IMG/VR virus record: IMGVR_UViG_2721755646_000011
Source of the DNA: a virus
Taxonomy: Duplodnaviria > Heunggongvirae > Uroviricota > Caudoviricetes
DNA length: 64,000 bases
Strand: one strand, 5' to 3'
This document shows positions 49,024 to 50,578 of this stretch, piece after piece. The translations under genes and the position numbers were made by a program. Position 1 is the stretch's first letter; each line of letters opens with the position of its first letter. The notes below the pieces were generated by a model, which had not been told where the DNA came from, ran no database searches, and saw nothing but the letters and a program-made list of their open reading frames with translations.

Positions 49024-50082
49024 TCATCCGTTACGAATGATTAAATCCTGTACTTCCCGCACCGTCTGCTCAAAACGTTCAGTCTCCAGTTCAACGCCAG
49101 TTGCACGACGTCCCAGCGCCATCGCTGCTTTCACTGTCGACCCCGACCCCATGAAGAAATCTGCAACCAGGTCTCCCGGACGACTGCTTGCGCTGATTAT
49201 CTGCTGCAACATTTCTGCCGGTTTTTCGCACGGATGTTTCCCTGGATAGTACTGCACCGGTTTATACGTCCACACATCGGTGTACGGCACCTGCACCGTC
49301 ACACCGAAATACCGCCGCAGATGCTTATATTCACTCTGCAGCTCCGCATACTGTCGGTTCAGAGAGGCATACGTATCCACCAGCTGGTGGTGGGGCTTTT
49401 CCAGTTCACCCCGCTGATGCTTCTCTTCTGCCACCCGGGCAAACAGTGCCTGTAATTTCAGATAATCGCTTTCGTTCGGCAGCTGCCACTGACCGGCACT
49501 GAACCAGTGCGACACCATGTTTTTCTTTCCTGTGGCATCTGCAATCTGTTTTGCCGTTATCCCCAGGACAGCGCGCGCATCACGAAAGTAAGCAATCAGC
49601 GGGGCCATCACATGCTGTTTCAGTGTCCTACCCTTCGCCTCATACCCGGCATCTTTCGGACGATACGGCCCCTGATAATGCTCTGCGAACAGAATGCGCT
49701 CTGTGGCGGGGAAATACGCCCGCAGGCTTTCCTTGTTGCACCCGTTCCAGCGTCCGGACGGCTTTGCCCAGATGATATGGTTCAGCACGTTAAACCGCTC
49801 ACGCATCATGATTTCGGTGTCAGATGCCAGACGATGGCCACAGAACAGGTAAAGACTTCCGGCAGGTTTCAGCACCCGCCAGAACTGCGCAAGACACTGG
49901 TCCAGCCACTTCAGGTAATCTTCATCACCCGCCCACTGGTTATCCCAGCCCTCGGGTTTCACTTTGAAGTACGGCGGGTCCGTGACTATCAGGTCAACAG
50001 AATTTTCGGGTAACGACCGCATAAATTCCAGGCAGTCGGCGTTGATTAACTCACAACTGGATATTTTTACAGTATTAAGCAT
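49024..50082 (-). CDS. DNA adenine (N6) methyltransferase, orphan (no cognate endonuclease seen)
   Basis: 352-aa ORF with DPPY catalytic motif (IVTDPPYF) and SAM-binding FFMGSGST motif. Confidence 0.85.
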   Translation of the reverse strand: MLNTVKISSCELINADCLEFMRSLPENSVDLIVTDPPYFKVKPEGWDNQWAGDEDYLKWLDQCLAQFWRVLKPAGSLYLFCGHRLASDTEIMMRERFNVLNHIIWAKPSGRWNGCNKESLRAYFPATERILFAEHYQGPYRPKDAGYEAKGRTLKQHVMAPLIAYFRDARAVLGITAKQIADATGKKNMVSHWFSAGQWQLPNESDYLKLQALFARVAEEKHQRGELEKPHHQLVDTYASLNRQYAELQSEYKHLRRYFGVTVQVPYTDVWTYKPVQYYPGKHPCEKPAEMLQQIISASSRPGDLVADFFMGSGSTVKAAMALGRRATGVELETERFEQTVREVQDLIIRNG

Positions 50083-50220
50083 GGATCATTAAGCCTGTCT
50101 CTGATAGGCTCATTCTGCTTTTGCGCAAAGCAGTGGGCCTGAGGTTTGCTTGTGAACCCAACGCATGAGCAGATGGCTGGTGGGTGCCCCTTACACCCAC
50201 CAGCCGCCCATTTACCACAA

Positions 50221-50249
50221 ATAAAAAAGCCTTCAGGACTGAAGGCGTC
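50221..50249 (-). terminator. intrinsic terminator after the small wHTH-like ORF
   Basis: Minus strand GCCTTCAG-n4-CTGAAGGC hairpin followed by T-run. Confidence 0.6.
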
Positions 50250-50430
50250 TGTAACAACCAAACTGATAGTCTGCCAGACCCGCCATAACCAGCTGGGTCA
50301 GTATTAACTGGCAGCGTTCGCGTGAAAGGTAAGTATTCTGCGCAATCTCCCCGACTGTCGCCGGGTCGGTAACGCTTAATTCATTAAACACCACTCTGGC
50401 GGTTTCTGTCATATCCTGCTGTTTCAGCAT
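50233..50430 (-). CDS. small hypothetical protein (65 aa, possible winged-helix regulator)
   Basis: Start MLKQQDMTETARVVF ... with purine-rich RBS; lies between two terminators downstream of Q. Confidence 0.35.
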   Translation of the reverse strand: MLKQQDMTETARVVFNELSVTDPATVGEIAQNTYLSRERCQLILTQLVMAGLADYQFGCYRRLQS

Positions 50431-50550
50431 GTCTTTTTCCCTTTTCCGGTTAACGTGACACACCAATAACTCTTGTCGAAAAAGCCAGCAACCTGAAAGA
50501 ACGGTATTAATAACCACCAGCGAATTTATTGCGCTGCTGTATATTACGGA

Positions 50551-50578
50551 CACAAAAAAACCACCTTCCGGTGGCTTC
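50551..50578 (-). terminator. tR'-like intrinsic terminator downstream of the late promoter
   Basis: Minus strand CCACCGGAAGGTGG hairpin followed by T7 run, about 90-120 nt after the Q stop. Confidence 0.65.

Follow-up and report, generated by a model that had tools for sequence, protein, structure and literature searches.

A conserved structured leader and tandem terminator-like hairpins before an M.EcoGII-type adenine methyltransferase gene in a lambdoid prophage

The adenine methyltransferase M.EcoGII is a widely used tool enzyme that methylates RNA as well as DNA, and what has been said of its native biology amounts, to our knowledge, to 'on a prophage, not expressed'. The present analysis concerns an orthologue of this enzyme in a 64,000-nucleotide (nt) stretch of tailed-phage DNA (Caudoviricetes; IMG/VR record IMGVR_UViG_2721755646_000011), which is referred to, at its full length, as the window. 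All genes of interest lie on the minus strand, where the order is a Q-type late antiterminator gene, a tR'-like terminator, a small open reading frame (ORF) of 65 codons, a second terminator-like hairpin and the methylase, exactly as set out in a preliminary description of the locus. Between the small ORF and the methylase lies a spacer of 150 nt, overlooked in that description, which contains a strongly selected structured leader common to M.EcoGII-family methylases across gammaproteobacterial phages.

The closest described system is that of M.EcoGII (and M.EcoGI) in Escherichia coli O104:H4 C227-11, with which the window shares a prophage-borne, orphan enzyme of beta-class motif order. Of 350 residues, 325 (93%) are identical to M.EcoGII as printed in supplement 5 of PMC11551740, and a few of the differences may be reading errors in that file. 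The window product matches PF01555 (N6_N4_Mtase; 2.4e-43, 149 bits, residues 29-340) and shows the beta-class order, with VTDPPYF at residues 33-39 (DPPY at 35-38), a central target-recognition domain and FFMGSGS at about 308-314 (FMGSG near 310); its nearest solved relatives, RsrI, CcrM and MboIIA, are all beta-class. It was rightly called an orphan adenine methyltransferase, as its neighbours are the 65-codon ORF upstream and tRNA genes downstream, with no adjacent restriction gene. Passages of PMC5778455 report that M.EcoGII methylates adenine in any context, that its constitutive expression gives slow-growing, unstable clones, and that it is not expressed from the prophage in normal growth. 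Homologues of 92-94% similarity in Shiga toxin-producing E. coli O111 are listed as orphan and non-specific, and leave no trace in single-molecule real-time (SMRT) methylomes of the lysogens (PMC6602927). M.EcoGII is a characterised enzyme and the activity of the window allele is read from its sequence identity; at 93%, its specificity, earlier posed as an open question, can be taken as effectively known, namely non-specific adenine methylation. Homologues have also been reported in phage 1720a-02, which is the best match to the window in a search of phage DNA. This body of work deals with the protein only, and the passages searched are silent on upstream terminators, a leader or a small gene.

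The elements of the locus, in transcriptional order, are as follows.

51214-50672, minus strand: Q-type late antiterminator gene, 180 residues (Pfam, PHROG)
50671-50575, minus strand: spacer between Q and terminator 1, the expected site of the late promoter pR' (by position only)
50574-50561 (stem-loop) and 50560-50554 (U7), minus strand: terminator 1, tR'-like (sequence, folding)
50491-50463, minus strand: conserved block TTGCTG-N17-TATTGG, 32 nt 5' of the small ORF ATG (alignment)
50430-50233, minus strand: small ORF, 65 residues, predicted winged helix-turn-helix (PHROG 331)
50246-50229 (stem-loop) and 50228-50223 (U6), minus strand: terminator 2, also labelled P0, covering the small ORF stop codon
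50221-50083, minus strand: conserved structured leader (conservation, covariance model)
50082-49024, minus strand: orphan beta-class N6-adenine DNA methyltransferase gene, M.EcoGII orthologue, 352 residues (PF01555)

Compared with lambda-type late control (Q, pR', tR', 6S RNA, StxS), for which short pR'-tR' transcripts and a 'moron site' at pR' are established in phages of this type (PMC7547250, PMC4104026), the window is alike in having an apparently strong intrinsic terminator less than 100 nt after Q. As in the prophages of enterohaemorrhagic E. coli (EHEC), late genes and moron cargo lie beyond the terminator, together with the convergent small RNAs (sRNAs) STnc100 and AgvB (PMC7547250, PMC4104026). 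It differs in that pR' and the Q-binding site are not identifiable by consensus. The scheme of lambda and 933W also lacks a second terminator and a structured leader, both of which are present in the window.

A nearer parallel in layout is provided by gene 52 of N15 and gene 52 of phiKO2, homologous methylases of 56-61% identity that are likewise the first late gene. Here an annotated late promoter and terminator immediately precede a leader, about 138 nt long, that the covariance model matches, and holin and lysozyme genes follow the methylase. Unlike the window, these phages have no small ORF and a single terminator rather than two, and their helix sequences are largely rewritten. In N15 (locus L230, 1501-1735) the translated match to the methylase starts 234 nt 5' of where gene 52 is annotated to begin, and the ATG at position 1501 is the end point of the leader model; by this alignment the annotated start is probably too far downstream.

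In phage Mu, the com-mom pair places a small protein gene just 5' of a harmful late adenine-modifying enzyme, with a structured mRNA region before the mom start. Mu Com, however, is an RNA-binding protein of the zinc-finger type whose gene overlaps mom, whereas the small protein here is a predicted winged helix with no zinc motif, encoded 150 nt away and without homology to Com. A translational activator of the Com type was considered and rejected, the model being a winged helix with two cysteines only and the methylase start region not being clearly sequestered. The C proteins of restriction-modification systems offer a similar partial likeness, as small DNA-binding proteins encoded beside a modification gene and possibly driven by a self-activated weak promoter. 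These are Xre-type helix-turn-helix proteins that time restriction-gene expression via C-box operators, whereas the window has no restriction gene and a predicted winged helix; no conserved C-box-like palindrome was found upstream of the small ORF in the aligned loci.

Conservation and structure of the leader

In 22 aligned loci from different genera, the leader shows 85% pairwise identity with 66 of 130 columns invariant, as against 49% identity and 18 of 345 invariant columns at the third codon positions of the methylase in the same loci. In fact, the leader is conserved to the same degree as methylase codon positions 1 and 2. Its architecture, obtained from RNAalifold and a covariance model, is that of a three-way junction followed by two further hairpins.

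50210-50206 with 50138-50134, minus strand: P1, enclosing P2 and P3 as a three-way junction
50205-50175, minus strand: P2, a 12-bp hairpin
50173-50145, minus strand: P3, hairpin
50133-50115, minus strand: P4, hairpin
About 50112-50090, minus strand: P5, hairpin

The covariance model finds a single match in the window (50080-50221, 134 bits) and one in each related locus, and the methylase follows at a fixed distance in all 106 leader-bearing loci long enough to judge, its ATG standing 5-8 nt past P5 with no Shine-Dalgarno sequence. Among close relatives the leader sequence is too constant for a test of pairing; one P3 pair in this set is CG in 21 sequences, AU in 18, UA in 11 and UG in 3, and is unpaired in none.

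A distant set was assembled by tblastn of a phage collection, accepting methylase homologues down to 50% identity. The leader lies directly 5' of the methylase in 12 of these 13 phages, with scores from 78 to 20 bits (model run with filters off), the hosts and phages represented being Hafnia, Providencia, phiKO2, PY54, N15, Klebsiella, Enterobacter, two Vibrio groups and Aeromonas. It was not found in the thirteenth, a P2-like Aeromonas phage with its methylase placed between the genes for holin and endolysin. Across 18 diverse sequences, compensatory double changes occur in 29 of 38 leader pairs, and the double-change cells number 109 compared with 35.6 +/- 4.7 in shuffles, none of 500 of which reaches this value. 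The proportion of paired cells is 85.7%, versus 32-41% with slid partners, and the covariation score is 0.431, versus 0.146 for shuffled and at most 0.115 for slid alignments. An unconstrained RNAalifold run on the same alignment gives back P1, P2, P4 and the base of P3, and compensatory changes are seen at 20 of its 25 pairs; conservation of P5 does not extend to the distant set.

The element does not correspond to a known RNA family: a search of Rfam 15 at permissive thresholds with the window and a divergent copy gave nothing above 25 bits over the leader, the sub-threshold matches to P26 (24.3 bits, on the opposite strand, threshold 36) and Streptomyces-metK (19.1 bits, threshold 44.2) being rejected. 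Nor was any description of an RNA motif or regulator at this locus found in the searchable literature, the incomplete coverage of which makes this weak evidence of novelty. Neither a concealed reading frame nor an extended methylase N-terminus fits the varying stops and lengths seen among the homologues, most of which carry a stop in frame immediately ahead of the ATG. A 7-codon upstream ORF on the invariant 5' arm of P2 (ATG GGC GGC TGG TGG GTG TAA, encoding MGGWWV; 50192-50212, minus strand) has no Shine-Dalgarno sequence, is cut to three codons in one homologue (L099), and is probably a coincidence.

Two further features of this region were observed. P4 (50115-50133) is a near-perfect DNA palindrome in many homologues (GCTTTAGCGCTAAAGC), the corresponding sequence being GCGATGCGCATCGC in N15 (L230, about 1440-1460) and GCTTTGCAAAGC in Vibrio and Aeromonas phages; it may serve as a dimer-binding site or form a self-complementary loop. 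In the first codons of the methylase (50065-50082 region), the third positions of codons 4-5 (ACT GTA) are invariant in 23 of 23 aligned loci (L083-L105) and those of codon 3 (AAT/AAC) nearly so, and invariant third positions are more frequent over codons 1-50 (7/50) than in the full alignment (18/345). The complement of codons 4-5, TACAGT, resembles a -10 element facing the leader; an antisense promoter was rejected here, as there is this -10-like sequence only and no -35 element.

The two terminators and the small winged-helix gene

The Q product matches Pfam DUF1133 (1e-110) and Phage_antitermQ (1.4e-8), as well as PHROG 753, 'anti-termination protein Q-like'. Terminator 1 (CCACC-GGAA-GGTGG followed by U7) lies 97 nt past the Q stop codon and, folded with its A/U extension, has a free energy (dG) of -21.9 kcal/mol, with a z-score of -7.5 relative to shuffled sequence. 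A strong hairpin and U-run occupy this position in 23 of 23 aligned loci, and DNA homology to Stx2 phages begins at or just past it, which marks a mosaic joint. The Q-terminator 1 spacer (50575-50671, minus strand) contains four AAGCTT/AGCTTG-like words, which might be a candidate binding region for this type of Q. Terminator 2 (GCCUUCA-GUCC-UGAAGGC followed by U6) is in the list of terminator-scan sites and its hairpin has a dG of -10.5 and a z-score of -3.8 relative to shuffled sequence; its 3' arm opens with the TGA of the small ORF. A single match in the terminator scan is weak evidence, because 18 sites were found over 46000-54000 as against 8.6 +/- 3.5 in shuffles. Supported by the comparison across loci, in which both are kept, the two hairpins nevertheless look like real intrinsic terminators, as the preliminary description had proposed.

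In related loci a covarying hairpin occupies the terminator 2 position, and its stems vary with pairing kept (GCCUUC/GAAGGC, GCCUCC/GGAGGC, CUCCGC/GCGGAG, GCUGCC/GGCAG, GCCGCC/GGCGGC and others); by script there are 33 distinct stems, a count that includes some alternative pairings. The hairpin is present as well where the small ORF is absent. Furthermore, the annotated late terminator of phiKO2 and N15 sits at this position: in phiKO2 the order is the late promoter TTGGCA-N17-TATCGT, a short transcribed stretch, CCGCC-ATCAG-GGCGG followed by U7 and then the start of the leader, ...GAAAAUGGGC, and N15 is annotated in the same way, with a late promoter and a terminator before the leader. By these annotations, terminator 2 corresponds in position to the late terminator of the simpler phages, and in lambdoid phages the small-ORF segment is, as judged by sequence, placed between a Q-proximal terminator and terminator 2 to give putative tandem terminators before the methylase. 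We infer the mechanism of terminator 2 from its sequence. The hairpin described earlier as flanking the small ORF is thus indeed present, but it is not simply the terminator of that ORF, since it persists without it and coincides with the phiKO2/N15 late terminator.

The small ORF is, by its pattern of conservation, a real gene. It is annotated as a coding sequence in an identical O157:H7 record, its product matches PHROG 331 (1.9e-37, PHROG function unknown), 333 database homologues are spread across Enterobacterales, and the median ratio of nonsynonymous to synonymous substitution rates is 0.10 (119 distinct DNA versions, 4739 pairs). The winged helix suspected from the sequence agrees with the structure prediction: the AlphaFold (AF2) model is a winged helix-turn-helix of H-H-H-beta-beta topology with a mean predicted local distance difference test (pLDDT) score of 88.5. 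Foldseek against the PDB returned only generic winged-helix matches, to DNA-binding (IclR, MarR) as well as RNA-binding (SelB) proteins, and the fold therefore does not tell the target. The public label of the protein, TrmB family (PF01978), was rejected (17.4 bits, below the cut-off of 25.6; E 0.004), and a search of NCBIfam gave no match. Helix 3 (RCQLILTQLVMAGL) is nearly unchanged even in homologues of 42-55% identity, which suggests a conserved nucleic-acid target; the protein probably binds such a target within the cassette.

Counting one genome per species, 24 loci encode the small ORF, and in 22 of these the methylase lies 147-154 nt 3' of it, the other two being one decayed copy and one doubtful match. 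This spacing is held even at about 50% protein identity. The small ORF was never found away from the leader in the loci examined, and it is present in 93 of 101 distinct metagenome loci that were found via the spacer alone. The decayed copy (locus L100, 3980-4302, from a gut Enterobacteriaceae genome) has a truncated small ORF and a leader still recognisable at 110 bits, while the methylase has been deleted and unrelated ORFs stand before the lysis genes. Linkage of the small ORF to the methylase is thus conserved far beyond chance and fits a functional tie, in line with the earlier suggestion that the small protein might control the enzyme. That suggestion holds only in part, however, as the small ORF is dispensable for the unit, of which it appears to be a frequent partner: about 8% of lambdoid copies lack it and yet have the hairpin, spacer and methylase, and it is missing from N15, phiKO2, PY54 and the Vibrio and Aeromonas phages that have the terminator, leader and methylase. 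The 65-residue protein is accordingly best regarded as a predicted accessory regulator acquired by most lambdoid copies.

Upstream of the small ORF, the block TTGCTG-N17-TAT(T/C)(G/T)G recurs in about 116 of 140 unique upstream regions at 30-32 nt from the ATG. It agrees with the sigma-70 consensus at only 6 of 12 positions, lacks the last T of the -10 element and was not called by the promoter scan; a weak promoter, one that depends on an activator, or an operator would each be possible. A palindromic operator was sought at the block and rejected, as CAGA-N4-TCTG occurs in Klebsiella/Salmonella-type copies and is absent from the E. coli type. Dependence of the small ORF on Q, as first proposed, is plausible from its position. 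An unlikely, though not negligible, alternative is that the small ORF is an autonomous moron, a regulator of host or prophage genes expressed in the lysogen from its own weak promoter and ended by terminator 2, whose adjacency to the methylase reflects nothing but an insertion hot-spot after pR'. Its flanking terminators and the recurrent upstream block would suit such a unit, the region after pR' is a known site of moron insertion (PMC4104026), and the methylase unit does occur without it. Set against this are the poor match of the block to a promoter, the persistence of terminator 2 where the ORF is lacking, the constant spacing and the confinement of the small ORF to the vicinity of the leader, beside the methylase in 22 of 24 loci.

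A proposed mechanism and its alternatives

The explanation favoured here as a whole, with moderate confidence, is that the late operon of an O157:H7-type lambdoid prophage begins in this stretch, with the methylase as its first cargo, and that this is a doubly terminated, Q-released late methylase with an RNA leader and an accessory winged-helix regulator. The late promoter downstream of Q would fire constitutively and its transcripts would, in the lysogen, stop at terminator 1, as is established for this phage type (PMC7547250, PMC4104026). Terminator 2 would provide a back-up against leak-through, or transcription started at the small ORF, entering the methylase, and the harmful enzyme would thereby remain silent in the lysogen, consistent with the published methylomes. 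Insulation of the methylase, as the preliminary description envisaged, fits the toxicity of M.EcoGII and its silence in lysogens (passages of PMC5778455; PMC6602927). On induction, Q-modified polymerase would be expected, from established knowledge of Q, to ignore the terminators and to transcribe the whole run from the two hairpins and the small ORF, through leader and methylase, to the tRNAs and lysis genes. Given the known properties of Q and M.EcoGII, progeny DNA would become adenine-methylated and gain broad protection from restriction.

The conserved unit consists of the terminator-2 hairpin, the 140-nt three-way-junction leader and the methylase, and the winged-helix protein would tune the cassette. 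The leader cannot control terminator 2, because it lies after it; its likeliest role is that of a cis-acting RNA which sets the yield of methylase from read-through transcripts, whether through translation initiation at the ATG without a Shine-Dalgarno sequence, mRNA stability or protein binding. Candidates for a binder are the methylase itself (autogenous control), the 65-residue protein and a metabolite. More tentatively, and as a possibility that we hold to be rather less probable than the general scheme, the leader may represent a new class of cis-acting regulatory RNA for non-specific phage adenine methyltransferases, a switch or operator which senses a protein or a small molecule such as S-adenosylmethionine or S-adenosylhomocysteine and licenses translation or stability of the harmful enzyme's mRNA in the lytic phase only; the protein sensed could be the methylase or its winged-helix partner, and the class would have been kept from lambdoid to N15-like and Vibrio/Aeromonas phages.

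Several observations weigh against the favoured scheme. A sigma-70 consensus scan of 50575-50671 gave no match of at least 9/12, so that pR' was not located, the best candidate read by hand being TTGCTT-N17-TTGAAT (7/12); a canonical promoter does occupy this position in related loci that carry other types of Q. A few homologues (for example L090, L094 and L176) have a degenerate U-run behind terminator 2, and in these the element may be mainly a structural hairpin. Fitting to the model has biased the covariation alignment in favour of the structure, and counts of G.U versus A.C fail to tell which strand folds. The start codon has a mean unpaired probability of 0.38, neither clearly hidden nor open, and presents no concrete switch. 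Finally, whole phage groups keep the leader without the small ORF, whose role is then not essential.

The ambiguity of the strand bears on a second alternative, which we consider improbable: that the spacer works as DNA, in an operator array at which the winged-helix protein or another factor acts as a roadblock or repressor, or from the opposite strand, by encoding an antisense RNA to silence the methylase message, much as type I toxin-antitoxin pairs do. The palindromic P4 of many homologues, N15 included, would be in keeping with an operator, as would helix 3 of the small protein, which varies as little as the spacer itself. For an antisense transcript there are the indecisive G.U and A.C counts, the invariant methylase codons 4-5 with their -10-like complement, and the A-run before P1, which on the other strand is a U-run after P1. 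On the other side, a P1 helix enclosing two others, all three with compensatory changes, is characteristic of a single strand that folds rather than of duplex operators; the plus strand has no -35 element or scan-level promoter and no canonical terminator; and the leader is kept in phages without the winged-helix gene. That the spacer is functionless, with incidental hairpins and an apparent conservation left by recent spread of the cassette, is very improbable, for although many copies are nearly identical E. coli prophage sequences, this is contradicted by the excess of spacer over third-position identity (85% versus 49%) in the same 22 loci and by leaders beside methylases only 50-63% identical (Providencia, Yersinia, Vibrio and Aeromonas phages), in which the helices are rewritten yet paired.

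Prophage context and significance

Over this stretch the window is identical to prophages in many E. coli O157:H7 genomes, and a related stretch occurs in 3390 of 5426 complete E. coli genomes. Genes for RusA and DUF968 are found 5' of Q, matching lambdoid phages. The neighbouring features are as follows.

51570-51211, minus strand: RusA gene, upstream of Q
48983-48751, minus strand: two tRNA genes, one with a CAT anticodon (annotated tRNA-Ile) and one Arg-TCT (ARAGORN, Rfam, annotation of the identical record)
48433-48641, minus strand: STnc100 sRNA (175 bits)
48372-48431, plus strand: AgvB/AsxR-type anti-sRNA (56.6 bits, just at the gathering score)

The nanS-p esterase gene lies beyond the sRNA pair. 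The convergent STnc100/AgvB pair corresponds to the 'moron site' arrangement of EHEC prophages, here without stx between the tRNAs and nanS-p. The tRNA genes are only two, about 80 nt apart, compared with three (ileZ, argN, argO) in Stx2a phages with the same methylase. The window prophage has no toxin genes. The block of small ORF, methylase and tRNAs is also found 5' of stx2 in many Stx2a phages, and the methylase follows Q in Stx2a phages as well as in Hafnia, Providencia and mEp460 phages. In the early/nin region of the window prophage are a hok-family toxin ORF (hokD in the identical O157 record; 53457-53669, minus strand) and the AcfC-family adhesin gene paa (53948-54706, minus strand).

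The methylase itself and placement in the late operon behind tR' are already known. Three features appear to be new: the pair of terminators, a winged-helix partner that is tightly linked yet dispensable and, most of all, the structured leader under strong selection. For an enzyme in such wide use as M.EcoGII, the locus shows how its silence in the prophage is probably built, by tandem terminators directly after a Q-controlled late promoter region. Were the leader not a regulatory RNA, the locus would be an ordinary copy of a known phage methylase. If it is one, it would offer a tractable example of how a temperate phage keeps a genome-wide DNA modifier harmless in the lysogen and deploys it at lysis, and it would add to the known RNA motifs one that occurs in thousands of enterobacterial prophages, including a position just 5' of stx2 in many Stx2a phages.

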